Below, in pieces: positions 1 through 59,342 of a stretch of 64,000 bases of DNA. How positions within the stretch are numbered: the first letter of the stretch is position 1; each line of letters begins with the position of its first letter. The stretch covers positions 26,662,001 through 26,726,000 of the forward strand of contig CM097885.1 of assembly GCA_044892525.1 (NCBI GenBank), read 5' to 3'. The DNA comes from Schmidtea polychroa (taxonomy: Eukaryota). A program made the translations under genes and the position numbers. The notes below the pieces were generated by a model. It ran no database searches. It was not told the origin of the DNA and saw nothing but the letters and a program-made list of their open reading frames with translations.

Positions 1-41
1 TACAAACATACGAAGCAGAAAGAGTAAAGAGAGAAATAGAA

Positions 42-1532
42 ATGTACAAAACCATGTATGAGAAAAAGCAACAAGAATTAGAAGCGGAGAAGGCGGAAGC
101 ACTAGCAACAAAGGAGGAGTGGATGAAACAGGTAGAGGAATTAACCGAGGATGTGAGAAATACCTCAACATACCAAGAATTGGAGGAAGAGCTCTCGAAT
201 TTACGAACTCAGCGGATTATGGAGATAGTTGGGTTATGCGGAGAGATAATAATGCAGAAGGCACAAATTAGGGAAGCAAAGGAGCAATACGAGGAGGAAC
301 AGCGTAAAACGGAACGAATAAAACTACAAGCGCAACAATGGAAACTAAAGTACGAAACCCTCCAGACAAGGCAGAATGATAGTCACGAACATCAAATACG
401 GAATTACAAGGCCGAACTAGAAGAAGTAAAGGGCAAATGCGCAATGATGAAAGAAAAATGGGAAAGATGCAAAAAGACCCTAAACGAAGTCAGAGGGCAA
501 GGGAGGAGAACACCGCATAGAGAACCAATTGTTAGAGATAACGTATTAGAGCGAATTAACACACAAATAAAGATACAAGCCCAGAAATGGAAGTATAAAT
601 ACCTAGGAAGTCAAACTCAAGTGCTCTATTGGAAAATCAGTAGCAAGGAACAACTGCGATTACGAAAAGCAGACCAAGAATTTCACGAAACAAGAGCTGC
701 ACAGCGAGAAGAAGAGGAAGTAGAGTGGAGAAAACGACAGCAGAAAACTGAGGAAACCGAAAAGTGTCTCAAGCATCAAGCCCGAAAATGGAAAAAGAAT
801 TGGAAAGAGACCAAAGAGGAGTTAAGACAGTTACCAATAAAACTGATGGAAAGAGACGAATTTAAAATATGGGAAACGATAGAAAACCAAAAAGATGAGA
901 TCAGCCGATTGAGTAGAGAACATAGAATCAAGACGCGGATCAGCGACGGTAGACAGAGAATCATAAAGAAACAGACTCGAGAAATAAGAAGGTATGAATT
1001 CCAGGAAAAGAGATGGGAACAACAATTGACAGACCAAGATCGACAGATCCGACAATTACAAACCGAAGTGGAAGAAGCCAATCAAGAGATGAACGGATAT
1101 AAAGGTATGTACACCCAAAGGGATGTGAATTGGAGGCACCAGATTGAGCTTAATGCGAAATATAGAGAGGAGTGCGACAAGACAATTCAACAAACCAAAC
1201 AGGAAACCGAGATAATAAAACGATGCTTCGAAGAAAATGAAGCAAATTTGAGAGCGGAAATTGAGAAACTAAAAACGCTCGAAAGAACCCAACGATTGGA
1301 AGAGGAATTAAACGAAATGATAGAAAACGAAGGTAGATTAACGTTTTTATTGGATGAGGAAATAAACATCTCAACGGAACTACGAGAGGAAATAGATCGG
1401 TTAAGGAGACAACCACCAATATTATTAATGCCACTCTACCCGTTCCCGTTGCAAGTGCCACAGCCTGCCGAAGTCACCACAGATGAAGGCTTCGATGAAA
1501 ATAACGAACAAAATAACGCAACATGGAGTTAG
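42..1532 (+). CDS. Long coiled-coil protein, probably a retroelement accessory ORF; frame is open upstream to the window edge
   Basis: 496 aa E/K/Q/R-rich heptads with recurring KxQAxxWK motifs (KLQAQQWK, KIQAQKWK, KHQARKWK). No introns. Confidence 0.65.
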   Translation: MYKTMYEKKQQELEAEKAEALATKEEWMKQVEELTEDVRNTSTYQELEEELSNLRTQRIMEIVGLCGEIIMQKAQIREAKEQYEEEQRKTERIKLQAQQWKLKYETLQTRQNDSHEHQIRNYKAELEEVKGKCAMMKEKWERCKKTLNEVRGQGRRTPHREPIVRDNVLERINTQIKIQAQKWKYKYLGSQTQVLYWKISSKEQLRLRKADQEFHETRAAQREEEEVEWRKRQQKTEETEKCLKHQARKWKKNWKETKEELRQLPIKLMERDEFKIWETIENQKDEISRLSREHRIKTRISDGRQRIIKKQTREIRRYEFQEKRWEQQLTDQDRQIRQLQTEVEEANQEMNGYKGMYTQRDVNWRHQIELNAKYREECDKTIQQTKQETEIIKRCFEENEANLRAEIEKLKTLERTQRLEEELNEMIENEGRLTFLLDEEINISTELREEIDRLRRQPPILLMPLYPFPLQVPQPAEVTTDEGFDENNEQNNATWS

Positions 1533-1564
1533 TCGAAGGGAGATGTTGCCTGTAAATAAGAATG

Positions 1565-1623
<59 letters not shown>
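1565..1623 (+). repeat. Poly(A) tract of about 59 nt
   Basis: Direct read; lies between ORF1 and ORF2. Confidence 0.95.
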
Positions 1624-1625
<2 letters not shown>

Positions 1626-1690
1626 AAAACCAAATAAAAATTACAAAACCAAAAAATTCAGAATAAAAAGAAGACAAAAGGAAATATGAT

Positions 1691-2476
1691 ATGTATATTT
1701 TTGTAGATATGAATTATTTAAAAGAAAGAGAATCAACGAGTAACGAAGGAAAGTCAAACGACCAACCTGAACAAAACCAGGATATGATACCAATCAAACA
1801 AGAACCGATGAAATATTATAGCAATAAATGGAGAGTCAGCAAGAAGTTGTTCAAATTAAAGATTGCAAATCAAAATGTAGAGATTACGAGATTGAGGCAG
1901 CATATTGTTCAATCAAGACGATTAATAAACACTGTCAAGCAAGAAATTTTGAGGGAAATAAAGGAATCGAAACGAAAAGAGACAGAAAATAAAAACCTGA
2001 GACAAGAGATAGTAGAGTTGAGAGCTCAGGCAGTAATCGAAGATTATTGGAAATCAGAAACAAGGAAGTTGAAAAAGATTGTGAATATCGACCAAGTCTA
2101 TATCGAGCAGTTAGAAGCACAATATGCTTATGCAAAAACAAGAGTGCGAGAAAGTAAAAAAGTCGAGAAGAGAAATGTAAAACTCAAGGAAGAGATCAAG
2201 GAACAAAGAGAGGAAACAGAAAAACAATGGAAGTTGAAAGAAAATTACCGGAGAATCTTAAATCAAAAACGACGAAGCATGCAAGCATTGCAGACGGCAA
2301 TAACCATCAAGCAGAGAAAATGGAAAAGTAAAGAGAAGCAATTACAAGAAATACCAGAATTAAAGAGACAGTTGATAGCAACGCAACTCGAAGTAATAAG
2401 AATGAACGAGTTGAGCAAAAGACGAGCACCTGAACCTCCCGTAAAATTAAGGGATGAGGTCGGTGGCTCCCAATAA
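1691..2476 (+). CDS. Basic coiled-coil protein (accessory ORF2); start may be the ATG at 1709
   Basis: 261 aa K/R/E-rich ORF. TTTTTGTAG lies just before the second ATG. Confidence 0.6.
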   Translation: MYIFVDMNYLKERESTSNEGKSNDQPEQNQDMIPIKQEPMKYYSNKWRVSKKLFKLKIANQNVEITRLRQHIVQSRRLINTVKQEILREIKESKRKETENKNLRQEIVELRAQAVIEDYWKSETRKLKKIVNIDQVYIEQLEAQYAYAKTRVRESKKVEKRNVKLKEEIKEQREETEKQWKLKENYRRILNQKRRSMQALQTAITIKQRKWKSKEKQLQEIPELKRQLIATQLEVIRMNELSKRRAPEPPVKLRDEVGGSQ

Positions 2477-2552
2477 ATGAGACAAAATAACCGTGTAAAT
2501 AAATTGTAAATAAAGCCAAGTAATTATTATTAACATATATGTATATGTAAAG

Positions 2553-3539
2553 ATGAGAAGCCTAATCGTGATGATGATTATAATGACAATGCCAAAAATC
2601 CTGCAAGCAGAAGAATCAATGATCAGATGCCAGAAAGAATACCCATATCGCAGAGAAGATAGTACATGTAGTAGCTTTAAATCGATCTGCGAAAAACCCA
2701 ATGAGGAATGCGAACAAATCAAGTTACAATGTTCGCAATGTCCACAAACAACTGAAAGTTCGACGGAAGTGCAAATGGCTCAGACAATAAAAACAATGTT
2801 AGAACAAGAAATGAAAGTTATCAGAACCCAGATGGCAACATTAGCCAAACAATGTCAAAGTCAGAAATCAAAGAGAGAATCCCAAACAGATCCAGCCGCA
2901 ATGAGAATGATGGTAATAATATTAGAGGAAATAAAACAACAGGTAACAGCAACCGCCTATGGACGTTCAAGCAATTGCGAAACAGTAGTAAAATCTTTGG
3001 AGGAAATGAAAGGAAAAATAACTTCCATCATCAAAGAGGAACCCAGCATTAAAAATGAGGTAACGAAAACCTTGAAAGAAATGACAAGGGAAATCCTAAC
3101 TACCATAAACAAAAACCCAACGAACTCCGAGAAGATGATTAAAACCCTTGAGGCAATAAAGAAAGTTGTCACCTCAGAAGAAAACAAATTCAATAAGCCC
3201 GAAAAATCAGAAACGGCGGATACAACCCAATTAAAAGAAATTATGAACAAACCCAAAGTAATAGAACCGAGAGAGTCTGAATCCCTCACAATATTGATCC
3301 TATTAGCGGCGAGCCTAATGATAAACATCACCGTACTGAGCCTGATTGCACTCAAACCCAATTCCAGTAAAGAAAGAAACAAAACCCTCAAACTAAAGGA
3401 ACAATCAAGAAGTATTCGTATCCCAATGGAAGAACAGCTAGTCCAAACAACGAACCAACCAAGCTACTTCAAATCTTCCCCAAACATTGAAACCAGAGCC
3501 GTCATCGAGACGAGATCCCGAACAACCGAATTTTATTAA
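2553..3539 (+). CDS. Predicted type I membrane protein in env-like position
   Basis: Hydrophobic N-terminus, Cys cluster, about four ~25-aa amphipathic repeats, TM segment LTILILLAASLMINITVLSLIAL, basic tail. Confidence 0.65.
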   Translation: MRSLIVMMIIMTMPKILQAEESMIRCQKEYPYRREDSTCSSFKSICEKPNEECEQIKLQCSQCPQTTESSTEVQMAQTIKTMLEQEMKVIRTQMATLAKQCQSQKSKRESQTDPAAMRMMVIILEEIKQQVTATAYGRSSNCETVVKSLEEMKGKITSIIKEEPSIKNEVTKTLKEMTREILTTINKNPTNSEKMIKTLEAIKKVVTSEENKFNKPEKSETADTTQLKEIMNKPKVIEPRESESLTILILLAASLMINITVLSLIALKPNSSKERNKTLKLKEQSRSIRIPMEEQLVQTTNQPSYFKSSPNIETRAVIETRSRTTEFY

Positions 3540-5899
3540 TGTGACATCACGACAGTATAAACATTTCATGACATTATAAAACATTATCAAACAATCATGA
3601 TTTCAAAGACTGAGACTGATTATGACTAATAACATTGATTCTTGAGCATGATAATTTTATTTTTGTGTGGACCGACCTCGGTCGTTCTTTTTCTTCATCT
3701 TTCAACCCATCCGTAGAATGTAGTATAATAGTAGCCTTTTTATGTATGTGGGTATTGAGGTCACGACCCTGTAGCTCGTAGACCCAATTTGCATGTAGGC
3801 ACTTGTAATATAGTGCAAGTATTCTGAAAAATAATTTTCTTCATCTTGTGATTTAAATTGCGGGTCGCAATTTTATGGGCCCCCGAGTGTTTTATGTTGG
3901 GCTAGAACTGATTTCTAGACCCAAAATACTAATTGTGACTGAAACGCGTAGGTACACAGCAAGTAAAAAAGCACCAAGTATAGTTAAATATTAAAACCTA
4001 CACCAAATAAACAATATTAACTAAAGGAGAAAGCAACAAAAACATAAACAAAGAAATTAAACAAAATTATACAAAAGCAAGAAGTGATGCAAAAATCTAA
4101 CTCAAAAATAACCAAATAAACACAGGGTTACAAAAAACAGACTCGAATAACTTAAAAGACGATAAAAACAGTAAAACATTCCAGAAAAACCCAGAACATT
4201 CTATAAAAATGGCGATGACCATCACAAAAGTTATCTAGAACAACAAAAGTTAAGGAAAATAAATAAATTAGTATTAAAAATAATAAATCTTTAAAAGAAA
4301 TTCACAAAACATCAGTTAAAATAAAAATTAAATTAAAAATAAAATAGAATGTTCTGGAACCGTTCCAAATCCATCATGGACGGCAAATTAACGAAAAATA
4401 ATTAAAAAATAAAAATATAAAAATAAAAACAAAAATTATGGCACAAAAATTGTCATTAAAAATAGCAAAATCGCTAAATAGAAAATTCTGGAATAAAAAG
4501 AATTCGAGTTTGTTTTAATGCATCAATACATACACGTGTACTAAATAGGTATATATACTGACACGTTTCAGTCACAATCAATCACTTTTATGCCAAATTT
4601 TTGTGACAAAATTTCCAAAATCGATAGTAAGCATTGATCTTTATTTGTATATTAATTGTTTAATTATATAGATGGTATTTTAAATTTATTTTTGCTTAAA
4701 ATTTTTTTTTGCGATGTATGAGTGATCAACGGCGTACTGGTATTCCTGCGTCGTTGTTCAGTCCTGCATCCAATTTATTAAAATCGTTATTAACAAGACA
4801 TGCAGACACGCATTATCGTTATTATAGTGATATTTATTATATGATTTCCTTTTGTTCGGGTCAGCCGGAGGTCGAACTACTTCATGGTCCTGCCATGGAG
4901 TTAGGTCGAGGAAACCCTCCGCCTGACTCTTCGTATTTATTTAAGGTCAGCCGTAAATGGTTGACTTAGCACACAACACTAAGGTTTGTGGACGTGGTCA
5001 CAGTGAGGCCATGAAAGCAATATTCTTCCCGACTCATTGCGTAATATACAATTAAACTCAACACTTAAAATCCTGAACAATAACTCTACACTAAGGTTCT
5101 AATTTGAGTAGAGCTCGTACCTAAAATTACACAATTCTACACTCACATTAATGTAGCTAGTTGATTCATAATGGTAATTTCAATTATACTTAGACATATG
5201 CCGAACTAGATTTTGTAGTAAGGATCTTTGATAAAGTAATAGAAAAAAGAGAGATATTCGGCATACGTACAGGTATAACTTGATCTAGATATGTTGATTC
5301 CGAGTAAAGATAGACATTTTAAATCTAGCTCCCACTTTAAAATGTTTGTAAATGTGTAGGCTCTTAGTTGTAATATTCTTGTTGTTAACTATAAAACTAT
5401 AAGTTATAAATAATTACGATAGCTAGGTACAAACCACGTCGATCCTGAAAATGTAAATTGTTAATGGAGAAAGTCTGATCAGAGATAGTAGTAAACAATT
5501 TTCGTATAAAAATCAACTTAGGATTGGTTACAGATAGGCGATAGACGCGCTAGAACCCTGAAGTTTAATCCACAAATAGGACCAGGAAATCTGTAAGTAC
5601 TGCGGAAAACAATGTTGATCATAGAAGGAAGTTGTAAGAAGTATATTCCGTCGACTAAAAATTTCAAATTATAAAGTATGAAAATACGAATTACAAAAGT
5701 ATAAATTTTAGATTATAAACTTATAAATTATAAGTTAAGCAATTATAACTTATAAAATATGAATGTATAAATTTCAAAATATGAAATTAATTATAAATTA
5801 CAAGATTGTAAATCCCTAAATGGAAAAATTTTAAATTATAAATCGAAAATTATCAAAGTATAAATTATAAAACATGAATTTATAATTCTAAAACATGGG

Positions 5900-6255
5900 A
5901 TTATAAAATTATAGTTATCATAATCCTGATCATTTCCCTTGTTATTACTATTAGCAGTATCAACATTATCATCACTATTAGTATTATTATTCTTATTATT
6001 ATTATATTATTATTATCATTATTATGAATATCATAATTAGCATTATTATTATTATCATCATTATCAGTACCATTATAAAAATTTATTATTATTCTTGTTA
6101 TTACTATTATTAGTATTATTATTATTACCATTATTAAAATTTATTATTATTCTTATTATTATTACTATCATTGCTATTATTAATATTATTATTATCATTA
6201 TTATTATTATTATTAGTATCGTTATTTCATTGTTATTATTATTGGTATTATTACA
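5900..6255. repeat. Degenerate (ATT)n low-complexity tract, preceded by degenerate TTATAAA-like repeats (~5660-5890)
   Basis: Direct read. Confidence 0.9.
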
Positions 6256-6771
6256 GTTAACTACAAAAAATCGATATCCCAATCCGATATCGATCACCTG
6301 GAAATTTAGAAATTAGCAAATTAAATAAATTACTTGTATGCAGAGCAAACCACTCATAACGAGCACAACCGAAGGAAAGGTAAGCAGACGAAGAGCTTAG
6401 TTCGTTGCTAGTACCTGTCGCCCCAGCGTGCCCGAATTTAGTGGCCTAAGAATGACGATCAAAAAGGAAAAAATTCACATTTTATTAATATGTAAATTAA
6501 AATTTATAAATAGTAATTAAAATTACTACTCAGTGGTAAACAAAATTTTGAATGGAAATGATTAATTTAAACAAACGAATTTTGACGAAAATTTTTTTTT
6601 GTGTGTTTGTTTTGATAAAGTAGGAAATCTTATTCCACTGCTCCTAAACTTATAGATGGTAGTCTTAAAATAAAATATTTTTTTTTTTAAAGGGAAAAAG
6701 GGTCAACAAAATCTTGTGGTTGACGTCGTATCTCAATCAGTATAGAGGGGCTTGATTATTATTTTGTAGAA

Positions 6772-7137
6772 ATGTCCTACTCTGACAGCGATAGCCACGA
6801 AGAAGCCGACCGACAGATGCTTACCAGACTCCGTACACGGTACATATGGCACCGTATCCATGATTGGAATCGGGGTTTGGACCTCGACAACTTTGGCCCA
6901 GTAATCAGGAGTGGGCCGGAGCCGGACGCTCCGGCGTGGGTAAAAACAGAGCCCACAAACGATTTTTTGCAAGAGGCCCGCGACCGAGCGGCCATCGAGG
7001 TAGAAGCAGCTCAGATGCGACTCAAGAAGATCGAGCTACAAATCCAAGCAGAAAAAGAGGGAAAAACCGTGGAGGACCTAGAAGAGGCCGAGGCAACCCC
7101 GCGGAAGAGGGGAAGGCCTCGCAAGCGACTGAACTGA
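6772..7137 (+). CDS. Small AT-hook protein (121 aa)
   Basis: GC-rich ORF in AT-rich flanks, short coiled coil, C-terminal TPRKRGRPRK canonical AT-hook. TTTTGTAG acceptor-like site precedes the ATG. Confidence 0.7.
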   Translation: MSYSDSDSHEEADRQMLTRLRTRYIWHRIHDWNRGLDLDNFGPVIRSGPEPDAPAWVKTEPTNDFLQEARDRAAIEVEAAQMRLKKIELQIQAEKEGKTVEDLEEAEATPRKRGRPRKRLN

Positions 7138-7347
7138 CTCATCGTCAAAATTTTGTTTTTTGCAAATTAACATTCAGTTGCGATTTTATTAAACTTTGAT
7201 TTTAGTGATAATTATTTCAGTCCTTTTAATAAACCATCTTGTGTATTGCGTGCTTAACATCCGAAACTATGTTTATTTATAATATTGATTTTATTTTATA
7301 ATTGAATGAATAGTAGGCTGCAAGAATATAATCGTTGAATTTATCTA

Positions 7348-7818
7348 GTGTTCAGACTATTGGAAAATCTGCGAAGAGATAGGGCAGAAGCTCAAAAACA
7401 GTCCGAGGAACTCCGCATACGAGTAGACAAGCTCAAGGGACGGTGCCGGGAACTAGAAAGCACCTGGTTTAGTCCCGAGGATATGAAAAAGAAGGTGGCG
7501 CAGGTCCTTCAACTGCAGACTCAAGCCGCGCAGGATCAGATGGAGATCCGGGCACTGAAGCTCCAGCTCCGCGCGCTAGAAACCGAGCGAAATGAACAAG
7601 TAGTTCACGGAGCCGCCATAAGCCAAATCCGGCCGTTGACCGTGGAACTAGCAGCAAAATACCCCCCGGCCGCGAAAGAGAAACCCAAAAGAAAGCGGTT
7701 AGGCCGAAATATTCGGGAAAAATTGAAGAAAGCTAGACTGGCCGAATACGAGCGACAAGCAAATTTGTCACTAGCAGCTGCGACGAAATTGGCCAGTCCT
7801 ACCAATAAGCCTGTTTGA
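7348..7818 (+). CDS. Coiled-coil protein with basic NLS-like segment; 5' end probably spliced
   Basis: GC-rich 156-codon frame, KEKPKRKRLGR motif, weak similarity to the ORFs at 22776-23509. Confidence 0.55.
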   Translation: MFRLLENLRRDRAEAQKQSEELRIRVDKLKGRCRELESTWFSPEDMKKKVAQVLQLQTQAAQDQMEIRALKLQLRALETERNEQVVHGAAISQIRPLTVELAAKYPPAAKEKPKRKRLGRNIREKLKKARLAEYERQANLSLAAATKLASPTNKPV

Positions 7819-8221
7819 ACTTATATTCGGTTTTAGGTGTTTTGTAGTATTTTTATGTATTGTGGTAGTCTTCAAATAATATGTTCCTTGTTAAAATACT
7901 GCACGTTTTGTAGTGATAAAATAATGACTAGTACAGTTTATGATTGCCTGGGAAATGAGAGTTTGTGCATAAGGTTGGGAAAACAATTTTGATAAAGGGA
8001 CCTGAGAAATCGGACACACACCTTCTATCGGTAGTCCGTGAACCCACGGAGTACTCGACAACTATAGTGCTTTGATGCGCTCACTTTTTGCGAGTACTCA
8101 ACCCTTGGTACAGTACCAACGTTGATCACTCAACGGGTACCAAGCGGAAAAACAATGTTGTATTTTGGGTTACGCTGGTAACAGCACTCAATCATTCAAC
8201 CACCAGTAACCCACCAGAGCA

Positions 8222-8893
8222 AAATAATTTTTTTCATTTTTAAACTTGCAAAGAGATCTATGAAGAAATGAAAGAATGTAATATAAAAGCGAATTTTAAA
8301 ATATTTCTACCAAAATTGGATATACTAATTACATATTTCAATGAAAGAATTTATCAATTTGATGATCTTAAACCGTCTTTTGATTTATTTTGTGATCCAA
8401 TTACTATTGATATCAACTCCGTTGATCTTAAATATCAAATAGAATTATGCGACCTGAGGCCGACCCATTTTTTATATCTCGTGGAGTAACTGGAATAGAA
8501 ATATTCAAATTTTTCGATAAAGAGAAATATCCAAAATTGAGAGATTTTGGACTTCAAATTGTATCAATGTTCGGAAGTACATATATCTACGAGCGTGCAT
8601 ACTCCGATATGAAATATATAAAGTCAAAATATAAAAACAGTTTGAAAGATTCCACTCTTGAAGATATAATTAGACTTGCCACAACAAATATTGATGTGGA
8701 AATAAAAGATATTGTTGATAAACAAATACGGCTACAATGTTCTGATTAATATATTACGAATATTTTAAAATTTTCTTTTTAGTATAAATAAAATATTTTT
8801 TTAAACTGACTTTTCATTTATCAACATTCTTGGCTCTCGAAATGTTCGGTGAAGAAAATATGGCCCTCGGGCTATGATAAGTTGGACAGCGCT
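8222..8893 (+). pseudogene. hAT (GTF2IRD2/SPIN/Charlie-like) transposase C-terminal remnant with 3' end
   Basis: FGSTYIYERAYSDMKYIKSKY dimerisation-type motif across two frames. Ends TGGCCC...AAGTTGGACAGCGCT. Confidence 0.75.
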
Positions 8894-13655: not shown

Positions 13656-14750
13656 AAAATACTGTATGATGTATTTTATTTATAATAAAAATTTCATTTG
13701 TCCATTTCGCTGTGAATCCTTTTTAAAATTTATTTTTATATTTAAATATTCTTACTCGTTCACCAATTTTAAACTTTGGTTTTATAAGTGTTGTATCAAC
13801 GCTCATAAAAACTTTTTCTACACCATTTTCAATATTTATTTCTTTAACTCTTTCAGGGTTTGTAGAAGCATTTAAAGGTGTTTCTTTGATAGAACTGTGT
13901 ACATCATTATTATATTCATTTACCATCTTTTGTAACAATTCATTGTTCCATTTTTGTTTTCCAATAGCAGTAAAATATTTCCACATTTCATTTTTTAATG
14001 TTCTATTTAATCTTTCAACTACGACTGCTTTTCCTTCGTTTTCTGTTGAATATAATTTAATATCATTTTCTTGCAAAAAACTTGCAAAAACTTTGTTATA
14101 AAATTCTGTTCCTTTATCACACCATAAATATTTTAGAATTCTTTGATGTTCTTCAAATATATTTTCAAATGAATCTGTAATAGAATATCCTGTTTTATTT
14201 TCTAAACATCTTGCAAAAGCAAATCTTGTATATAAATCTATTACAGTTAAAATTATTTTATATTTTTCGGGGTCTGATAATTTGGTTGGCATAAGGACTA
14301 AATCAGCAGACCAAGTATGATCTTTTTCATAAACTTGAACTTTTAGATATTTTTTATTTTTTCTAAATTCATGGTGTAATTCATTAGCATATTTTATTTG
14401 TGATTCTGCTGGGATTAATAAACTTTTAAAAGAATTAGTCTTGGATACATGCTTTTCAATGTCTGCTTGTTCAATAATCTTTTTATTAGCAACATCTTTT
14501 GCCATCCTTGGTACTCCTGCACCTATGAAAATTTTACCCTTCATTGCTAAGTTAACTAGAGCTCTTTGAATCTTTTCTTGGGTTGATGGATTTTGTATAC
14601 TATTTAAATCATGTATTAAATTAACATCAGCAACATGTCTATCTCTAAGATTTTTTGAATTGTAAGCAATGTCATGTTTCAAAGCAGCTTGGTCAATTCT
14701 ATTTATTGGTTCCTCTCCTTGTTTGGGATTATTATTTTTTTTATCAAGTC
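13656..14750 (-). pseudogene. Parvovirus-type PLA2 domain fused in frame to Polinton retroviral-like integrase
   Basis: PINRIDQAALKHDIAY...RHVAD, then WSADLV, VIDLYTR, CDKGTEF, VERLNRTLK. Stop at 13723 interrupts KF*KGFTAKWTNEIF. Confidence 0.85.
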
Positions 14751-15147
14751 TAATATCTGTTTCTCAAAAGCAAATCTACTTGAAGGATCGAAATCTAACC
14801 ATGGAATATTATTTGAAGATGAACTTTTATTACCAGAACTTGTTTTGGTAATAAAAGAAACTATTTCACCTTCAAAATTATTTGATGGAATATTATTATT
14901 ATTACTTAATTGAGTTAAATTCTCTCTCTCTCTAAAGCAAGTTTAGATCATGAGAGGTGTTTTTTAGTTTTAAGATGACTCGCTTTATGGTGTGTTGTAA
15001 CATCACAACAACAAGTTTCACATCTCCAATAACTTTTAGTAGTCATTTTTAAAAAGTTAAAATTTAATTATAATAATTTTCTTTTACTAAAACTTGTTTT
15101 CTTAATAAAATTTGTTTATTTCTCCAAACAAGTTTGGAGAATTAAAC

Positions 15148-16434
15148 TTAATCTCTAATATTCTCAATTATTGAAATCTTTCCACCATATAACTTCATTT
15201 CTATTTTCTTTTCTTCAAGAAATTATGTATATATTTTTGCTTTAAAATTAGAATCCTTTGTTTTATGAAGAGTAACATCAACATTATTTATAGCTAATCT
15301 ATCATCTTGATCTGAAACATTTATACAGAATATAGAATACAAATTTTTGAAATCGTCTAAACTTAATTGTGGTTTTATTTTGAAGTCTTGGCATGTTTGA
15401 ATATAATTTTCATATGGGAATATATTTTCATTGTTTTCTATATTAAACTCCATTCTATTTACTGGATAATAACTATTATTCAATTGAATTTGAATTGATT
15501 TTAAATTATCATCTCCAATCTTTTGAATAAACAAGTTGTTATTTTTTTGAAAGGATAGATCTATTTCTTTGAATCCAATTAAAATATATCTTGGTCGATA
15601 TGCTAAATTTGCAATCTTTATAGAATATGTTGAACCTTCTCTCATGTCAAATACACTACAAATTCTATTTAAATAATTAACATTTATGGACTTGTTGGAA
15701 TCTAATCTTTCCAAGAGTTTAATTTCAGCATGTGGATTTAATGCCCATTCGGGTATATGTAATTCAATTGTTGTAAATTTTAATTTAGCTTTTGTATCTG
15801 CAGCTCCATAAAATAATACTTTATCATCTAGTATTCTATTACAAAGTAATTCTATAAAAACATTATGAAGTATACGATTATAGTTTTGAAGGAATCCAAA
15901 TAAATGTTTTAATTCGAAATAACCTTCAAACTTTTTAGATTTGTAAAGTTTTACACGTTTATGATAACCATAATTTATATCTAAACCATCTTTATCTGTA
16001 TCACCTTTATTTACATCAGGGATCCAACCGGTTAATTCACCATAGTCATTTTTGTAATCACAACCAGTCAAAACAAAATTTAACATTGAAGAATATGCAC
16101 CTGGATTCAAAATATTTTCAACTTCTGAGGGTCCTAATTTTAATCTCATGTTGGAGAAGAAATTTGGGAAAAAATTATTTTCTAGGATTATATCTTTGTT
16201 TGCTTCAATCTCTAATTCAATTTTGTAATATAATTTTGCATTACAAATATCTATAGGGTTTGATGTTTGAAGAGATTGAAAAACTATGTCACCTGAACGA
16301 TTTAAATTTGAAATGGAACCAGAGGTTGGAAAAATTTTAAGTACATAATTTTTCTTGATTTCATGAATAAACTGTTTATCATAATTACGATTTAATTTAT
16401 TTTTTTCTGAAATCTCGAGATTTATATTGTTCAT
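15148..16434 (-). CDS. Polinton double jelly-roll major capsid protein, with a premature stop near the C-terminus at 15223
   Basis: 403 aa with LKHLFGF, PRYILIGF, IQLNNSYYP and YSIFCINVS motifs in Polinton context. Frame continues 24 codons past the stop. Confidence 0.8.
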
Positions 16435-16544
16435 TTTTATAATAAAAATTTCAATTTTTCAATTTTTGTATTTTATTATTTTTATATACCCTCTAATTTT
16501 TAGAATTTTATAAATATAAAATTTTAAAAAATGACAAAAGTCTG

Positions 16545-20982: not shown

Positions 20983-21882
20983 CTAAAAGTGTTCCGAAGC
21001 GCTGTAATCGGCAACTCCGAGAGCGACAACACAAGTCTCTTTTACTACCTGCTCCTTGTCATTGAGATATTTGTGCAAGATTTCCTTGCATTTAGCATCC
21101 CCGATTGCTCCTAGAGCTTCTCCGCTTTCATGTCGGACCATTCCGAGCTCGTGCAAATTTCCTATTGCTTCTTCCAATACATGAATTAATTCTTTATTTG
21201 CGATTTGCCCTATCACAAACGCCACTTGATGACGAAATAACGCACTGCTCGGGCATTTTAATGCCTTTCCTATAGCAGTCAAAGCTGCTCCTGCATCACT
21301 TCCTTTTGAATGAGCTACTCTTCTCAAGGTAAACAAAGCTCGATATTTATCAAAGATATCTGCTTTCGGATTTAGCAAAATTTCATTTAAATCATGCACT
21401 GATTTCTCATTGATTTCATATTCAGGAGCTGGATCAATTGAATGGAATTCATTTGGAGGAACATTGGATTTATGAGATTGAAAAAATTCAATTCTTTTAT
21501 AACCCAAATAACACGTTTCAGCGAGTTCTTTATTCGAGTCTTTACTGTGCTTCTTTAAAATATCCAAAGCATCTGTATGACCAATTGCAGCTAACCCTTC
21601 GCCAGCTTCATGACGAACAATTGGTGCCTCTTTTTCATTGTCAAGAATATCTTTCAATACTTTAATTGCATGCTCATTTGCCATTTGACCAAGAGCATAA
21701 GCTAAATCATGTTTCAATAAATCGGATTTGCTTGAAAAACATTTTGTAATCAAATCGATGGCAAGATCACTTTTTGAATGTCTTAAACCTTTTAAAGCCT
21801 TGTATCGTTCTACTAATGGCTTACTACCATCATTTAAGACATCTCCCCAGGCTTTTAAATCGTGTTCCGTAACAGCTGCCAT
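20983..21882 (-). CDS. DOHH: Deoxyhypusine hydroxylase-like HEAT-repeat di-iron protein (intronless CDS, 299 aa)
   Basis: Two-fold HEAT dyad with LLKHDLAYALGQ, IVRHEAGE, SIDPAP linker, YRALFTLR, LFRHQVAFVIGQ, MVRHESGEALGAI and ETC motifs. Confidence 0.9.
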   Translation of the reverse strand: MAAVTEHDLKAWGDVLNDGSKPLVERYKALKGLRHSKSDLAIDLITKCFSSKSDLLKHDLAYALGQMANEHAIKVLKDILDNEKEAPIVRHEAGEGLAAIGHTDALDILKKHSKDSNKELAETCYLGYKRIEFFQSHKSNVPPNEFHSIDPAPEYEINEKSVHDLNEILLNPKADIFDKYRALFTLRRVAHSKGSDAGAALTAIGKALKCPSSALFRHQVAFVIGQIANKELIHVLEEAIGNLHELGMVRHESGEALGAIGDAKCKEILHKYLNDKEQVVKETCVVALGVADYSASEHF

Positions 21883-22775
21883 GTCTAAATCGATTCAATA
21901 ATGTTATTAATAACGTCACGTAATATAAGTTTCAGAAAGGATTTTTAAAAGTTTAAAAGTGTATATCTAATATAATTGCACAATTAAAACACATAAATAT
22001 AGGCAATTTATTTAATTTAAATTTTATGATAAATGAAATGATATTATTTAAATATAAAGCATTTCATTAATTATGATATCTATATATGATTGAAATTATT
22101 TTAATTTTTAATATATAGAATTTTTTAATTAGAAAATTCCACTGAAAGCATAAAAGATCAGTTTAATGCAGTGTTTTCTAAAATGCCATTTTTTCTTTGG
22201 CGGAACTCCAGCAATTAGAAAGCTCAAAATTTACAGATTGGGAATAAATTTATTTTAATAATATTATTGAGAGGAATGGCACTGATTTTCACAGCAAATA
22301 TTTTCAATTCGAGGCTAAATTGACGACAAGCAAACTGTTGGGCACCTGGAGCTGGATAGTTGATGAATGAGATGATTAGGGGTGGAATTTTGACTAGTGA
22401 TTTCCCCAGATACCCAAAATGATGGTAAAGGATATTCCCTCCGATGCACCCATGACACTGAGCCTAACCCCCAGTATTCGCGGTACGGGTTCCTGACTGC
22501 CGTAGAAGGACTTACGTTTATCCCAAACCCTCGGGTCCAAGTGAGGTTTTCTCGTTCCCGATTACTCAAGCGTCTCAGAGTCTCAACAATAAGGTAGTCA
22601 ACAACTCATCGTTCTCAAGACATTTATTCATCGAGCATGCGTAGAAATTACAAAAAACATCAAACGACTACTTTATACACAGATATAATTTTATTGTACT
22701 CAATGATTCTAATCTACAATTATCATGAAATGTCGAATGTACAGATCCATAGAGCTAGCTGACGATTCCCGTCAA

Positions 22776-23509
22776 TTACCAATCTCCTTCCAACAGCATC
22801 GCTACGATGTCTGTTTCCAATGCCGGGTCGGAAGCTATCTGAGAAGTTGTGGCTGGCACGATTCTTACTGCAGAATTTGCGTTTTTCGAAACGACCGGCT
22901 GAACCGATGTTGCCGCGAATAGAGTGGCTTTCAATGCCGCGAGCTCTTCGTTTCGTTTTATAGTTTTTTCGGCGCGGATCAGCCGCTTCTTCTTCTTTGC
23001 CTTAGGAGGATCGGCTTGGATGTCCCCTCGAGGAACGCAAGTAGTTCCTGGAGCCACATTAGAAGTCGTGGACTTGTAAATTTCTGACATTAAGATGTCT
23101 GGCAGATCAGGTGAGGTTGCAGTAGGTCCATGAGAGTGACAAGGTGAAGAGTGGGATGGGCCCACGTGATCTGTTCGATGATAGAGGGGAAAGATGTTTC
23201 CCTTGTCCATACCAGGGTACTCGGCTGCTCTGGACTTAAGCTCGGCGTCGGAATATATGCGGTGTAGGACCGCTGACTGAGCTTTAATCTTCGGCTTTCC
23301 TCGAGCAAACTGTCACGGCAGTGCTCGAGCCTAAGGATTTTCGTCTGTGCTTCTTTCATGGCGGCTGGATTGAGACAGGTGCCTTTCAATGTGTCGATTT
23401 TTCTCTTCAACGTTCCGATATAATTGGTTAATTTTCGCAATAACACGTTTTTATCCGCGCACAAGAAGCACGATCTCGGGCCGGTTGCTGGCAGATTGGG
23501 TTCAGACAT
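22776..23509 (-). CDS. Coiled-coil/basic protein inside the LTR-like unit, split over two overlapping frames
   Basis: CFLC, RKIDTLKGTCLNPAAMKE, then PPKAKKKKRLIR. A GT...TTTTATAG 45-nt intron-like stretch ends 3 nt before the ATG. Confidence 0.5.
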
Positions 23510-30303: not shown

Positions 30304-32804
30304 TACTGTTCCTCAATTACCGTATGTTTTATTTTACCGGTAAACGGTAAATTAACAATCGTATTACCGGTAAAACCGGTAAATTTCGGTAATAAACATT
30401 TTACCAGAAATTAAAACAAAATCATGGTTTAATTGAAAAAAAACATTACAATATGTTTATTTCATACATATTATATAAAAGAAATCATTCAAGAAAAGAA
30501 CTAAATACAAAAATTTTAATTATTCATTATTTTTGTTAACATTTTGTTTCAAAAAGAAATATTTAAGGAAAACGATAATGTGCAAATTTTCATCCGATAA
30601 CCTAGTTCTTATTTTAGTGCAAACTCGGCTCGCCATGGAGAATGTTCTTTCATTGTCTGTAGATGTTGGTTTTGCGGTTTGCAGAGCTTCGAACAAAAGT
30701 GTGAGATTATGACTTTTTTCCCCGGATACTTCAAAAAATAAAAACTCTTTCTGGACTGATGATAATAATCCTACTGGAAATGGAAACCATAGCTGTAGAA
30801 ATAGCTTTTTGAAATTGAGATTTCAAGTCAGTATTTAAAAGGTCGGTCTCGACATTATCTTCTGAATCTGATTCTGCTGACTCATCTGATTTGAATAATC
30901 TTTCAATTATTTTTTTCCCAAATGCCACTGTCGGTAACTTTGAACAGTAATCAAAGTGAACATTTCGTTTCATTAAATTTTTTGGATGAAGCATGTACTG
31001 TACAAGAGATAATAATTTAATATTACGTCTTTTATCAATTTCTCTTTTCAAACAAACTAAGAAGTTAGAAGTTATTGGTGAATCGGTATTTTTTTCCAAT
31101 GTTGAACATAACAATTCAATTACACTTTCCGCGGTAAATAGTGTAGCATCATTTCTTGCTAAGGTTTCTGCGGCAATCCGAACTGGCTCTAAAATATTTT
31201 GAATGTTTATCAAATATTTTTCGTCTATTCTGGCTAACAAATGAAGAGAATTAAAATATTCTAAGGCTTCTTTTACTTCTTCTTTTACTTGTAAATATCG
31301 TTCTATCATGGGTACGATGGAATTCCAACGTGTCTTTATATCTATTTTTAATTCCAGTTCTTTGCCAAGTCGAGTTTTTATCTTCTCTTGCAAAAAATCA
31401 TTTTTCAATGACGATAATCGAAAATATTTAATGACGCTGCGTAAGGCTTGCAATTGAATGAAAAAAATTGAATGACTGTATTCATCATTTTCAATTGCCT
31501 CGTTTATCTTTTCAATTATCATATGGTTATCTGGTTCAGCAGAGTCACCATCATCAATGTCAGCGTCACTGTCATATTCCTCTTCCAAAATAATGTCTTT
31601 CTCATTTGCAATTGAACTCTGGTCAGTTTCAACATTTTTTGGTAGAAAAACTTGGTTACTGATAAATGTAGGGCATGGTTTAAGCATAATACCGGTTCAA
31701 CTGGACTTTCTCTATTATATTTTTGCATTACTGCTGCACCATCGTTGATTGAACATAAAATATGATGATCAAAATCTACGTTGAACTCATTTAATCGGTT
31801 TCTTATTATTGCCTGAATATTTTTTGCATCACATTTTCCAGTTATTCTTGCTAAACCAAGATTGTAATTTTCTTTGTCATCATACAAAATAATATTGCAA
31901 TATCTTCTATTTTTGATGCTTGTCCATTCGTCTACAGACAGTGAAAATCGTTTCCCAATAGAAATTTTGGACTGTAATTGTTCTACAAGTTGTATTTTTA
32001 TATTTTCGTAATAAACTTTTACCAATTCCATCGTGCCCGTTGAATTTTTTGGAAGCTTGTGTCCTTGTTTATTTATACTTTGCCGAATGAAAGACGAATT
32101 TGTGACGCCATAATAAGAGAAACCATCTAAAGCAATTAGTCTAGACACAATCTCTTCTAAAGTTTCACGTTGTAAATAACTGGATATTAATATTTTATCC
32201 TTTTTAAATGTAGAGGCAGAAGTACTAGGACCTGCATCATTATCAACTGCTTTTTTGATCAAAATTTTATATACAAGTTTAAGGTGCGAAATCATTCCAC
32301 TTGTTGAACCACCATCACATTTAATAGATTTTTTACATAATCTGCATATAGCTTCTTTATTACTGTCTTTTCGCTTTTCAAAATGCTCCCAAACATTTGA
32401 AGAACCCATATTCTATTTAAACAATATTCTATTTAAACAATATTCTATTTATTAAAAAATATTAATTTTTCAATATAATTTTATTTTAATAATAAATCAA
32501 TAACGTTATAGATAAATCTTATATTACTTACGAGATTTTTTGTTTTCTAAAAATTTGTTTCTATGTATTACGAAATATTATTTATTTTAAATAAAAAATC
32601 ACAAAATCACATGCACAGTTCTTTAAGTAATTCAGTTTTACTGGTTTTTATATTTATTGTTATAGGATAAATATAATATTTTTTTATTTTGCACAATAAC
32701 CGTATTACCGGTAATTTAGTAAATATTTTTACCGGTAAACGGTAATGTAAAAATGCGCAATTTACCGGTAAACGGTAAAGGTTTTTACCGGTAGAGGAAC
32801 TATA
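30304..32804 (-). mobile_element. Full-length hAT (Ac-like, BED finger) transposon with 8-bp TSD GTTGTAAT
   Basis: TSD at 30296-30303 and 32805-32812. TIRs TACTGTTCCTC / TATAGTTCCTC. Multiple subterminal TTACCGGTAA palindromes at both ends. Confidence 0.92.
30527..32409 (-). pseudogene. hAT transposase with two frameshifts (~31640, ~30740)
   Basis: BED finger VWEHF...CRLC...HL, SVDEWTS, CLNHALHL, TRWNS, PTSTDNERTFS...RTRLSD. Confidence 0.9.
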
Positions 32805-32861: not shown

Positions 32862-34243
32862 GAAATTTATTTTAGCCATTTGCAAATGGCTTTCAAGTAA
32901 TTTTTTTATTTAAATTAAATTTTAAGACTAGAATTCTGATCCATATGAGATATGAGATAATTATTCAAGTTCTTAAATATTACTTTTAATCAACAATATA
33001 ATTATAAATTATTTTTAATTAATTTCCAGGGATTTTTTTAGGAATTTTATGACATTTACCTTTATTTATTTTGGAATTATTTCGAAAAAATGTGAGTCCA
33101 ATATATTTTTAATTATAATTAATTAAATAAATAAATCAATCACCTAAAATGTATTTTCTTAAAACATTTTGGGGAAAATCGATGATTGAAATAATTTTTT
33201 TAATTTTTGTAATTTTTTTTCTGAGCTCAATATGAGGGGCTTCTTTCAGGAAATCAAATCTGGATTGAAAGGATATTGAACCAAATTAATCTGCTCTTGA
33301 TATTTTCATTAAAAATATAATTTTAAAAATTTTCAACCATCTTTTTTTTCTAAAAATTGTCTAAAATAAAGTTTATTATAGAAACGTATCTCATCGTTAC
33401 ATTTCTACGAATCAAAAGTTTGTATGTGTTTCTTAATATTTGTCGCGTTTGTGTGCAGTTTTTAATTTTTCTTCCACTTTTCAGATTTCTACACCAAACG
33501 CCACTGAGAACCATTTCCTATAATATAACAAAAAAATCAATAATCTTACATTATAGAAACATACATACTTACTTTGATTTCACGTTGATGTTCTCATTTA
33601 TAGCTCAATGAGATACATCTTATATTATAGAAATCTGAAAAGTGGAAGGAAAATTAAAAAATGCACACAAGCACAACGCATAATAAAAAATACATACAAA
33701 CTTTTGATTCGTAAAATTGTAACGATGAGATACGTTTCTATAATAATTCTATTTTAGACAATTTTTAGAAAAAAAAGATCGTTGAAAATTTTTTAAATTA
33801 TATTTTTAATGAAAATATCAAGAGCAGATGAATTTGGTTCAAAATTCTTTTACTCCAGATTTGATTTCCTTTAAAAATCCCCTCATATTGAGCTCAGAAA
33901 AAAAATTACAAAAATTAAAAAAATTATTCTAATCAGCGATTTTTCCCAAAATGTTTTAAAAAAATACATTGATTGATTTATTTAATTAATTATAATTAAA
34001 AATATATCGGACTCACATTTTTTCGAAATAATTCCAAAATACTTTAATAAAAGACATAAAATTCCTAAAAAAGCCTGAAAATTAATTAAAAATAATTTAT
34101 AATTATATTGTTGATTAAAAGTAAAATTTAAGAACTTGAATAATGATCTCATATCCATATGGATCAAAATTCAAGTCTTAAAATTTACTTTAAATTTAAT
34201 ATCTTACCTGAAAACCATTTCTAAAATGGCTAAAATAAATTTC
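32862..34243. repeat. Long foldback: ~620 bp imperfect inverted arms around a ~140 bp spacer
   Basis: 32862-33490 is the reverse complement of ~33628-34243. The spacer recurs inverted at ~34430-34571. Confidence 0.85.
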
Positions 34244-37200
34244 ATGGTGTAAAACATACGTAAAACAAATTACTGACAACTTTGCTCAACAACAATTTAT
34301 CATCAACATCAGTATAAAATTCATCAGTAAATTGGTGAGTGAGCAATCACTCTACACGCAAACCACCACTATAGAGAACGTATCTCAGTGGTGTTTGGTG
34401 TATAGAGAATGTATCTCAGTGGTGTTAGATGTATAATATAAGATGTATCTCACTGAACTATAAATGAGAACATCAACGTGAAATCAAAGTAAGTATGTAT
34501 GTTTCTATAATGTAAGATTATTGATTTTTTTGTTATATTATAGGAAACGGTTCTCAGTGGTGTTTGGTGTAGTTGTAATAAATGATTTTTTGAATATCCT
34601 CTCAAGAAAACTCCATTTTCTGTACGAATACTGGCGAAAAACATGATAACATTAATGATGAATTTAAACAAATTAAATATTTTATAATTAACTATGTTTA
34701 GAAATTTTTTAAAATTCTAATATATATTAATAATAGAACTAATTCACTGAAATAATTTCAGAATGTAGAGTAAAAATTTAATTAACCACGAATTCATTGG
34801 CAGAAACTTTCAAGCCAAATATATTTAAAATGAAATCGACCCTTAAAATTTTTTTCCCAATTGAAAACCTTGAGTGCGTGCTTGATCTGTATAATATAAT
34901 TAAGTGCTATGCGACGTTTTTATGATAAATAAATGGGATATAGTCAATCTTTGAGGCACTGCAAGACCTCGCCTGGTGACCTTAAAAGGTTTGTGAAAAC
35001 TGTCTATATATTATTGGTTTATGAATTTTTGATAACATTCGACAAACCTATATTTTTTTTATAAAGCATAAAAATAAAAATGAAAACGATTAGTCATGTT
35101 GAATTGGGGTTTTCTTATCCTCCCGGCACTCGTGTATTTGATTCCATATATTTTATTATCAACCTTGATTTGAACCCTAAAAGAATATAAAAAACATAAA
35201 CAATACTTATTCCAATATATTTTTTAATTTAATGCATCAGAAATTACGGTACATTTAATTGTCAGTAGCCAATAATTGAAATCCATTCATTAATCACAGG
35301 GTAATAAAACTTTTCAAAATAGATTTGTATAGACCCAGATTTGCCTACCATCCTTTCATGAGGATATGAGGATATGAGGATAACAATATCTACAACGCAT
35401 TAACAGTATATTAACAGTATATATTTTTAAAGATGGCGTTAGATAAAAGCAAGAATGTAAACTTGATATTATAAAGGCATGTTTCAAAGATTATTCACAC
35501 TATTTACTACTTATAAATTTACAGTTGTTTTAAAAATAAATTTTCGGGCATATCGAAATTATTATTTGTAAAATTATTAAAAAAATTAATCAATCCGATT
35601 GCTATTTTGAGAATATTTGTTAAAGTTTTTATAACATTTGAGAATAAATCATCATTTATAATCTACAGTCGCCCTCCGCCGCCGCCGCCGCCGTCAGGCT
35701 CATTCAACGATAAGTCTGTCAACAATAGCTCAGTTGTAACATAGAATGAGTTGAGTGAAAAGAATTATGAATTAATAATTTAATTTTATCTGGAAATTTA
35801 ACTTTTAAAAATTAAATGTTCCAGGAAATATGAAAATATCTGATAGCAATATGCAAAGCACGAAAAACAAATTTATCACAGATTCAGATAAATGTTGAAT
35901 GTGATTTTTGATGATTTATTTTTATTATGTTTTGATTAGTTTTTTCAACTGACATCAGAATGCAACAGCACGCGTTTATGTCAATTGAAAATTTAATTAA
36001 TAAACAAAAATAGCATCAGCTCCATAACAAAAACTCGGATTATTTTTTATTATTAATAAATTTCAAGATTTATAAAAGTTTATTTGTAATCAATCAGTAA
36101 ATTAGTTTCCGCGATTTGTGATTGGTTGACTTCGTCTGGATGCGGAACGGTAAATGATCTCTCAATGGATAACTTTCCGGGTATTGAAACAAATTATGTA
36201 AAACATTTTATTGCAATCAACCATTATTTTTCCCTCTAAATAATTTTTAGAGTTGAAATTAAATTGTAATTGAATGAAGAAACGACTGGCGAATATGCCC
36301 AGTGACAAAGAAGTTTCAACCTTAATTCATTTAGTTTCTGTATTGTTTTAGTTGTAGCATTTTCGCACTAAAGAAGTAATGTTTTCTTTGATTTTCATAT
36401 CCAAATACATTAGGTGTTCACGTACACATAGGTAGTTATTGTTTTTTCTTAGAGACTCGAGCGCAAATATATTGGTTATATGTTATTCCACAAGATACTT
36501 AACATTATCCTTCTTTAATGTGGTAAGTGTTGGTTGTACTAGTAAAACATTTTAAGTGTTACATTTTGTAATATTTTTTTTCATTCTTCGGTTATCAAAA
36601 GTTCCAAAAGAGATGTGCCAAATGTTAAATAAATAAAACTATTGATTTATATTTTGAAATGAAAAGAATAGAAAAAGATAATAAAACTAATAAATCCATA
36701 GTAAAAAAAATTGAACATATTTAGCGTACACATTCAAGTTACAGAAACCAAGTTGGATCCAAAATCAGATTAAAGATTTTTTCACAGCTTTTCTACTAAA
36801 TCAGTGTTTCCCGACGTTCTTTATACCATGCCCCATCGTAGTATTTTTAAAAGTCATATGCCCCACCAGCCCCTTTGAAGTAACTGTCAAACTTCGATAA
36901 TAAGTATTGTCAGTATGCAAAAATAACGCCAAATAAAATTTAATTTAATTTAAAAATCAAAAGTGTTACATAAAATTACCTATTTCTAAAACATAAAAAT
37001 TAACCTTAATTTACAATACATAAATTAGCCTTACCCAAATAAAGGCGCGGCAAAAACGGCAAGGACAATAAAGGCACGAATATTAAAAGCGCAGATGGCT
37101 AGTCCATATATCCTTTTTTAATCTCTATATGCCATTTTTAAAATCTAGTTATAAATACTTAATTCACAATTTGATATAGATTTATATGAACCTTTATTGT

Positions 37201-56411: not shown

Positions 56412-56644
56412 GTAATTATTAGGAGATTCATCCTGTAAAACATTAAAATCAGTTTTTGTTTCCATAAATTTTATTTCAGTAAATATCAGAATCAAATTAT
56501 ATCGTCTTTAAACTTTCTTATTTAAACAAATTTTCTACGAAGATATTTTTAATTAAAATATCTTCTTATTTTGTTTTTAAAAATTAATCTAAAATTTAAT
56601 TTTTAAAATTTTCAATTTAAAAATTTCTTCATCATAAAACTTCC

Positions 56645-59340: not shown

Positions 59341-59342
59341 TG

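Follow-up and report, generated by a model that had tools for sequence, protein, structure and literature searches.

Structure of the element and its long terminal repeat

The present analysis deals with a long terminal repeat (LTR) in a 64,000-nucleotide stretch of Schmidtea polychroa DNA (contig CM097885.1; G000:C1:26662001-26726000 in our numbering, referred to as the window), from a genome of 781 Mb. The LTR comprises 4,322 bp from TG to CA, and is with near certainty the 3' LTR of a young 34-kb Burro1-type Ty3/gypsy element. Two open reading frames (ORFs) inside it, ORF1 and ORF2, are protein-coding genes under purifying selection. The main parts and the evidence for each were as follows.

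3895..8216, forward strand: 3' LTR of the 34,077-bp Burro1-type Ty3/gypsy element (paired copy, target-site duplication, end comparison)
6772..7137, forward strand: ORF1, 121 aa from its own ATG (ORF list, selection, alignment, structure model)
7349..7818, forward strand: ORF2 exon, preceded by the acceptor AG at 7347-48 and beginning with TG (selection, junction pattern, model)
8217..8220, no strand: 4-bp target-site duplication (TSD), with a matching copy in front of the 5' LTR

The original prediction had placed a TG...CA-bounded unit of 4.3 kb at 3888-8221. The unit proved to be a real LTR, but its ends were corrected to 3895 and 8216. Among 30 loci matching the left end, unrelated DNA stood directly before 3895 in 16 and the internal junction of the element in 14; among 30 loci matching the right end, the sequences diverged directly after 8216 in 16 and continued through 8 nt into the primer-binding site (PBS) in 14. 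The bounds 3895-8216 follow from these divergence points, which together with the TSD position ruled out 3888 and 8221. The 5' LTR was located outside the window at G000:C1:26636140-26640461. The two LTRs, 29,755 bp apart, were identical at 4,322 of 4,322 bp, and 4-bp TSDs were likewise found in all three other elements checked. Behind the 5' LTR, 8 nt from its end, 17 of the 18 bases of the PBS were complementary to the tRNA-Pro(TGG) of the genome plus CCA. The suspected paired 5' copy was thereby found, with an identical LTR, a 4-bp TSD, a tRNA-Pro PBS and a Gag-Env-Pol interior.

The interior of 25.4 kb began with a RING ORF, followed by zinc knuckles, MATH and a viral fusion glycoprotein (Pfam, E 2e-69), then by protease (PR), reverse transcriptase (RT), RNase H (RH), integrase (IN) and ankyrin repeats, and finally by TRAF/MATH, BIR-RING and coiled-coil ORFs. 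The Ty3/gypsy order PR-RT-RH-IN was present, with Env between Gag and protease, and the polyprotein of about 4,800 codons lay in two frames, the change of frame falling between RNase H and integrase in the window copy. BCL2-, Ubl- and dUTPase-like motifs were unseen by Pfam at E<=0.01; the published Burro1 annotation used HHpred. Several interior accessory ORFs carried an AG just before the likely ATG. The last of them open the window, and a perfect 59-nt poly-A run (1565-1623) lies between two of these.

1..3539 (3-1532, 1667-2476, 2514-3539), forward strand: last internal accessory ORFs of the element (ORF list)

In the accessible part of its description, Burro1/GYPSM1 of Schmidtea mediterranea is a giant gypsy-like LTR element of more than 30 kb, with an interior of about 25 kb and a polyprotein of about 4,900 aa (PMC6431247). 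The window element (34.1 kb) resembles it in Gag-CCHC, MATH, Env between Gag and protease, PR-RT-RH-IN, ankyrin, BIR and accessory ORFs; its layout is that of Burro1/GYPSM1, matching the published description. The suggested membership among Burro-type LTR elements was borne out by this layout and by the paired LTRs, PBS and TSD. The difference is that the same part of the text (PMC6431247) describes no LTR protein genes, no promoter-leader structure and no AT-hook.

The junction before the 3' LTR was conserved yet mixed in composition, and a plain purine run (polypurine tract) was not present there. The bases just outside both LTR ends were partly inverted repeats (L013:7462-7469 and window 3887-3894), and the PBS stood 8 nt from the LTR end in the Burro1-type family and at a similar distance in sister families. 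Taken together, this PBS spacing, the absence of a plain polypurine tract and the partly inverted end bases suggest unusual end processing. tRNA-Pro(TGG), the primer tRNA of Burro1-type elements, gave 2,291 pattern matches genome-wide, and at G000:C1:130.90-130.94 Mb (L237) units of 475 bp, each containing one such gene, formed a long tandem array.

Purifying selection on ORF1 and ORF2

The two ORFs that had been predicted, one of 121 aa ending in PRKRGRPRK and one of coiled-coil/basic type, were present at 6772-7137 and 7339-7818, each behind an acceptor-like AG (6768-69 and 7347-48). The ratio of nonsynonymous to synonymous substitution (dN/dS) was calculated by the Nei-Gojobori method on open-frame copies only, the pairs not being independent of each other. 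Among unsaturated pairs, the dN/dS of ORF1 was 0.15 (window versus L157, p 1.7e-7) and 0.29-0.34, and that of ORF2 was 0.10-0.16. Between lineages, synonymous sites were saturated (pS 0.68-0.90) with a pN of only 0.11-0.28. Across copies, dN/dS thus ranged from 0.10 to 0.34, and both ORFs were confirmed to be under purifying selection. When the window LTR was compared by BLAST with L109, L112 or L120, the aligned parts were the 5' 1.2-1.4 kb, ORF1, ORF2 and the last 240 nt, and the spacers around the ORFs were not aligned.

That recent amplification has simply multiplied frames left open by chance could be argued from the youngest copies, which are near-identical and uninformative, but this explanation is refuted by a dN/dS far below 1 with saturated synonymous sites, and its probability is negligible. 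When the bases of the LTR were shuffled 500 times, 3% of the shuffles contained one frame of 137 codons and 0.4% a [RK]GRP[RK] word, and 0 of 500 contained two frames as long as ORF1 and ORF2.

ORF1 ends in an AT-hook-like motif

The C-terminus of ORF1 carried PRKRGRPRK at residues 110-118 (7099-7125), and in the lineages inspected its ATG followed the acceptor-like AG by 1-2 nt. In an alignment of nine ORF1 proteins, down to 31% identity, RGRPRK was invariant in all nine, as was the N-terminal helix RLR-x-R-x-IW-x-x-IH-x-W. The structure model comprised helices at 6-31 and 64-96 and a free tail, with modest local confidence (pLDDT 69) and low overall confidence (pTM 0.32). Of two Atlas searches, one returned nothing and the other gave low-recognition coiled-coil look-alikes. 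The ORF1 protein of L120 was a mosaic that resembled the window lineage in its first half and the L112/L109 lineage in its second, an indication of recombination within the LTR gene.

HMGA-type AT-hook proteins have an RGRP core with basic and proline flanks. ORF1 shares this core and these flanks, and differs in that its one hook ends an otherwise novel helical protein without a Pfam AT_hook score. Our informed guess, drawn from the motif, is that ORF1 may bind A/T-rich DNA. Alternatively, RKRGRPRK might be a nuclear or nucleolar import or RNA-binding signal only, with ORF1 working through its RLR-x-R-x-IW-x-x-IH-x-W helix and not through DNA binding. The motif is single and scores no AT_hook, and the helix is as invariant as the hook; against this, none of G, R, P, R and K varies even at 31% identity, and a plain basic signal presumably needs neither G nor P, so that we regard this alternative as clearly unlikely.

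ORF2 encodes a basic-helix protein with relatives in sister families

ORF2 comprised 159 codons from stop to stop (7339-7818), and its predicted fold was one of long helices around a TW-F-x-P kink, followed by a basic helix, KPKRKRLGR. It was homologous to the single ORF of 250-270 aa that two sister families carry in their LTRs of 3.8-4.2 kb; these families have the primer site in common with the window element and lack the AT-hook ORF. An invariant K, TW, P, K and E and a basic helix were retained throughout ORF2 and these homologues. A profile search of 1.84 billion proteins yielded 15 relatives of ORF2, most of them gene models fused to unrelated host domains, and several with an Arg-rich RNRRRRERRR at the position of the basic helix. 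One relative matched G000 at only 31-51% identity, and the ORF2 family therefore exists in another genome. No sequence or fold match of ORF2 to entries of the Protein Data Bank (PDB) or to viral folds was found. A further member of the ORF2 family, of the sister-family type, was seen at 22776-23312 on the reverse strand of the window (hhalign probability 98.7%) and is probably a remnant of a different Burro-like LTR.

Predicted promoter, leader and splicing

The remaining features of the LTR, from left to right, were the following.

3895..4581, forward strand: putative U3, A-rich (56% A over most of it), with cross-lineage identity mostly 80-100% per 50-nt block
4347..4359, forward strand: three-unit heat-shock-element-like motif, with a second copy at 4481-4493
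4550..4557, forward strand: TATA box, present in 25/25 LTRs, 610-720 nt from the left end
4582..4626, forward strand: predicted leader exon, with an Inr-like start about 30 nt past the TATA box, last base A, and the donor GTAAG at 4627
4855..4932, forward strand: conserved RNA hairpin in the predicted first intron (z -5.4), kept in the ORF-less subfamily too
5965..6253, forward strand: degenerate (ATT)n microsatellite tract (repeat scan), varying between lineages
6349..6445, forward strand: second conserved RNA hairpin, not an exon (z -3.0)
7227..7232, forward strand: AATAAA, candidate poly(A) signal after ORF1 (motif)
7975..8216, forward strand: strongly conserved last 240 nt on the PBS side, kept in ORF-less LTRs

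The putative U3 stayed conserved in lineages whose ORFs have diverged. Cross-lineage identity was mostly about 80-100% up to 4594 and then dropped at once to about 50-85%, even with an ORF1 identity of 31%, as one would expect from exchange of U3 during strand transfer together with a start of R near 4582. A donor of GTRAG type was found 75-106 nt downstream of the TATA box in 24/25 LTRs. In a sister family, family B (L107, L111, L128, L150, L161), the leader exon was exactly repeated behind a short intron; its leader started about 30 nt after the TATA box, and both leader copies held lineage-specific sequence. This repeat supports a transcription start at the homologous place in the window LTR. 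Transcription probably starts near 4582, as the sequence pattern indicates, and both ORFs would thus lie in R/U5.

Two heat-shock-element-like motifs were present upstream in 17/17 LTRs of the ORF lineages; the consensuses used for these and related promoter motifs are those we take to be standard. A YY1-like AAAATGGCG word at 4209-4217, assigned by what is presumably the YY1 consensus, was kept in 24/25 LTRs. A second TATA box further upstream, at 4202, was discarded as not conserved, being present in just 4/17 ORF-lineage LTRs. In most family B LTRs an ATTAAA stood between the TATA box and the start.

ORF2 had no ATG near its start. Its acceptor read YAG|TG in 17/17 ORF2-bearing LTRs, and the last base of the leader was A in 15/16 of those with a detectable donor, with positions -2 to -4 varying; the exception, L184, had an open in-frame upstream ATG. 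Because the leader ends in A, the acceptor is followed by TG and the ORF has no ATG of its own, splicing would create the start codon of ORF2. In errantiviruses such as Drosophila gypsy, the start codon of env is formed by splicing (our literature search gave no confirmation of this). ORF2 would share with it a start codon split between leader exon and acceptor, and would differ in that donor, acceptor and ORF are all inside one LTR. An ATG within the leader was rejected as a general start codon, since about half of the LTRs lacked it or had it out of frame or followed by a stop. Spliced expression of both ORFs from the LTR's own promoter is likely on these patterns. An A(A/T)TAAA within 150 nt past the ORF1 stop was found in most hook-bearing LTRs and was absent in L190; as a poly(A) signal, the AATAAA at 7227-7232 is weakened by its A/T-rich context.

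The ORFs could instead be accessory genes of U3 type, like nef, sag and bel, that are expressed solely as last exons of whole-element transcripts, with the start close to the LTR's 3' end. They do continue the interior's series of AG-preceded accessory ORFs. However, the last 300 nt of the LTR alignment held no conserved TATA or AATAAA, and 2.2 kb upstream of ORF1 stand a TATA, a leader and a donor that are all conserved, at a place where conservation has a sharp boundary; we consider this arrangement very unlikely.

Conserved RNA hairpins and the ATT tract

Compensatory double changes were found in 5 of 38 pairs for the hairpin region 4850-5035 (18 sequences) and in 10 of 31 pairs for the hairpin at 6349-6445 (5 sequences). 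Since both hairpins beat shuffles in folding and showed compensatory pairs, the predicted-intron part of the LTR is under selection as RNA. An Rfam search gave no result. A small internal exon at 6345-6379 had been considered and was rejected, its donor being unconserved and the block behaving as a covarying hairpin.

The ATT-rich tract named in the original prediction was present at 5965-6253, but the accompanying idea of an AT-repeat targeting module was not supported by the data. According to this idea, integration would be directed to (AAT)n or AT-rich DNA by the AT-hook protein, with the tract as its module. Among 115 insertion flanks, which include both sides of some elements, (AAT)4 occurred within 20 nt in 3 versus about 1 expected, and a second count gave 4 of 115 versus 1.9% of background windows; the tract was also absent from 16/16 LTRs of the hook-less sister families. 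Against targeting, A+T over 100 nt was at background in these flanks (70.5% versus 71.0%) and 72-73% in 33 flanks of hook-less families (p 0.17), and the tract was missing in five LTRs with an intact hook ORF (L112, L120, L190, L194, L205) and present in 6/8 ORF-less LTRs. Being absent in five hook-keeping LTRs and present in most ORF-less ones, the tract is a variable microsatellite and not a required module, and steering of integration by ORF1 is highly improbable.

Family size and solo LTRs

Genome-wide, 2,708 exact LTR starts were counted, of which 437 had the 3' internal junction, and 420 LTR ends led into the primer spacer; roughly two thirds of the approximately 2,700 starts had no matching interior junction. 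The best 150 scored ORF1 matches in the genome were all 99-100% identical and open. Older lineages were sampled from 60 of the first 100 listed primer-site loci (1,082 in all) and from 40 unpaired LTR starts. An ORF-less subfamily with the same ends as the window LTR made up 7 of 15 Burro1-type primer loci. Another group, family C (L108, L114, L119 and others), accounted for at least 21 of the 60 primer-site loci; its LTRs were short (about 1.6 kb) and ORF-less with the same primer site, and it is possibly non-autonomous.

Of the 40 unpaired starts, 16 were complete solo LTRs with a 4-bp TSD, and the remaining 24 had no TSD-bounded end within 6.2 kb. An open RGRP frame was kept in 8 of the 16 solo LTRs, and both ORFs were open in 5 (L184, L190, L194, L205, L218). 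The expectation that solo LTRs would carry the ORFs along was therefore upheld by 5/16 TSD-flanked copies. In an earlier set of 13 seemingly unpaired young copies, none was confirmed as a solo LTR; in 5 of these 13, one end was missing from the sequence compared or the end key was unmatched.

Other features of the window

A remnant of a hAT transposase dimerisation domain (8432-8749) adjoins the insertion site. Polinton-like pieces lie at 13723-16458 and 44231-45931, both on the reverse strand, and contain an integrase with a phospholipase A2-like N-terminus, a double-jelly-roll capsid and fragments of a protein-primed polymerase; inverted arms of 132 nt stand by them at 44504 and 49468. An intronless ORF of 303 codons with HEAT_PBS repeats (20983-21894, reverse strand) resembles what we take to be deoxyhypusine hydroxylase. 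A zf-BED hAT transposase in two frames (30731-32412, reverse strand, and 33148-34572) is situated beside a nest of long inverted repeats, and a small gypsy element (56417-60621, reverse strand) has 233-nt LTRs 98% identical to each other, gag and a deleted pol.

Discussion

LTR-encoded accessory genes are known from retroviruses: MMTV sag, HIV nef and foamy-virus Tas/Bet are spliced ORFs in or reaching into the LTR, within U3. The analogy with sag and nef drawn in the original prediction was found to be partial. Accessory ORFs do lie in the LTR and are predicted to be spliced, but the retroviral ones stand upstream of the LTR promoter, whereas the ORFs of the window lie downstream of the putative promoter with its conserved TATA, leader and donor, so that promoter, intron and ORFs share one LTR. 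No sequence similarity of the window ORFs to LTR-overlapping retroviral accessory genes was found. In the part of the source at hand, Rev, Rex and Rem (PMC3856414) are comparable as small spliced proteins of nuclear type with a basic helix and structured intron RNA, in an element that needs both spliced and unspliced RNA. ORF2 differs from them in having no detected homology, a long coiled coil and a place in a Ty3/gypsy LTR. A Rev-like role of ORF2 in RNA handling is an informed guess by analogy, with which the basic helix, the hairpins and the element's splicing load agree.

On balance, we hold it somewhat probable that the two selected ORFs are leader-spliced from the LTR's own promoter and act as self-regulating nuclear factors. 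Transcription would start near 4582, and a leader ending in A would be made from the LTR promoter. This leader would join the ORF1 acceptor as a 5' untranslated region, or alternatively the ORF2 acceptor (TG), by which the ATG of ORF2 would be formed. As guessed from the motifs, the AT-hook of ORF1 might bind the A-rich U3 or other A/T-rich chromatin and keep the promoter active, and the basic helix of ORF2 might act on a conserved LTR hairpin and tip the balance of RNA away from spliced and towards unspliced, exported forms. Each LTR on its own, whether 5', 3' or solo, would then suffice to supply both factors in trans.

Several observations weigh against this reading. In near-identical young copies, ORF1 had 9 nonsynonymous versus 7 synonymous variants and ORF2 had 7 nonsynonymous versus 3 synonymous codon variants, close to neutral, as expected for changes arisen after insertion. 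ORF1 had no match to Pfam AT_hook at E<=1, which is why the AT-hook call rests on the RGRP core and on its conservation, and the single RGRP motif could serve solely as a nuclear localisation signal. Single-sequence and profile searches for homologues of ORF1 were negative, as was a search of PDB sequences; no match in sequence or fold was obtained, whether to Rev, Rex, Tas and HMGA or to other proteins of solved structure, nor did ORF2 show a clear leucine-rich export signal. As to splicing, the junction pattern of ORF2 required a Val codon, which imposed two of the four junction letters, and the LTR copies are related, which robs counts of LTRs of their independence. For LTRs of the ORF-less subfamily, the base at -1 of the donor was T in 8/8 by first match, and by the second GT it was G, T and A in 5, 1 and 2 of 8. 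No GT-AG joint in the LTR was found in contigs of the presumed-RNA runs X1, X3 and X6-X9, which are uninformative on splicing. In run X6, depth was very high at 4200-4281 and exceeded 12,000 within 4200-4290; the loose ends at 4248-4287 were pure poly-A, and AATAAA occurs close by, at 4258 and 4262. These ends may reflect oligo-dT priming in the A-rich tract; should RNA truly be polyadenylated at this place, upstream of the promoter, the model would need either regulated read-through or a second promoter.

The ORFs may instead be real LTR genes that act on the host, for example as anti-silencing or chromatin factors countering PIWI-directed repression. The selection and the expression anatomy fit this equally well, the interior carries TRAF/MATH, BIR and RING cargo (apoptosis, ubiquitin), and BURRO1 is repressed by SMEDWI-2 according to the accessible part of PMC8532177. 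On the other side, no link of either ORF to a host target was found, and the basic helix of ORF2 together with the conserved intronic hairpins fits RNA handling better; host action is rather unlikely in our judgement. The self-regulating reading also has a bolder extension, which we put forward tentatively and with more doubt than belief. Burro elements would, on this view, have shifted their regulatory genes into the part of the LTR that is transcribed, and every LTR would form a complete cassette of two genes, inducible by stress and alternatively spliced, with a Tat/Tas-like AT-hook activator and a Rev-like export factor whose start codon is made by splicing; hundreds of solo LTRs would supply both in trans after the body is lost, as a complex-retrovirus control circuit that arose in a Ty3/gypsy element independently of vertebrate retroviruses, with a strong-stop DNA of about 3.6 kb.

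No account of protein-coding genes within Burro LTRs turned up in our literature search; the ORFs may already be drawn in Grohme 2018 and Jurka 2007, which lay beyond it. Burro, AT-hooks and accessory ORFs go unmentioned in the main text of PMC13524379, so far as accessible. A pair of selected protein genes within the LTR, which solo LTRs continue to carry, is apparently an undescribed feature of a known giant element. LTRs are usually taken as non-coding and solo LTRs as spent promoters, and the window LTR holds two selected genes of no known family. Gene predictors also join such LTR exons onto host genes, and chimeric models of this kind were found in the databases. If the two genes are expressed, the regulators of the element are not silenced when recombination leaves a solo LTR behind. 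ORF1 and ORF2 offer testable candidates for the control that a giant element with an env gene exerts over its many spliced RNAs in a regeneration model.

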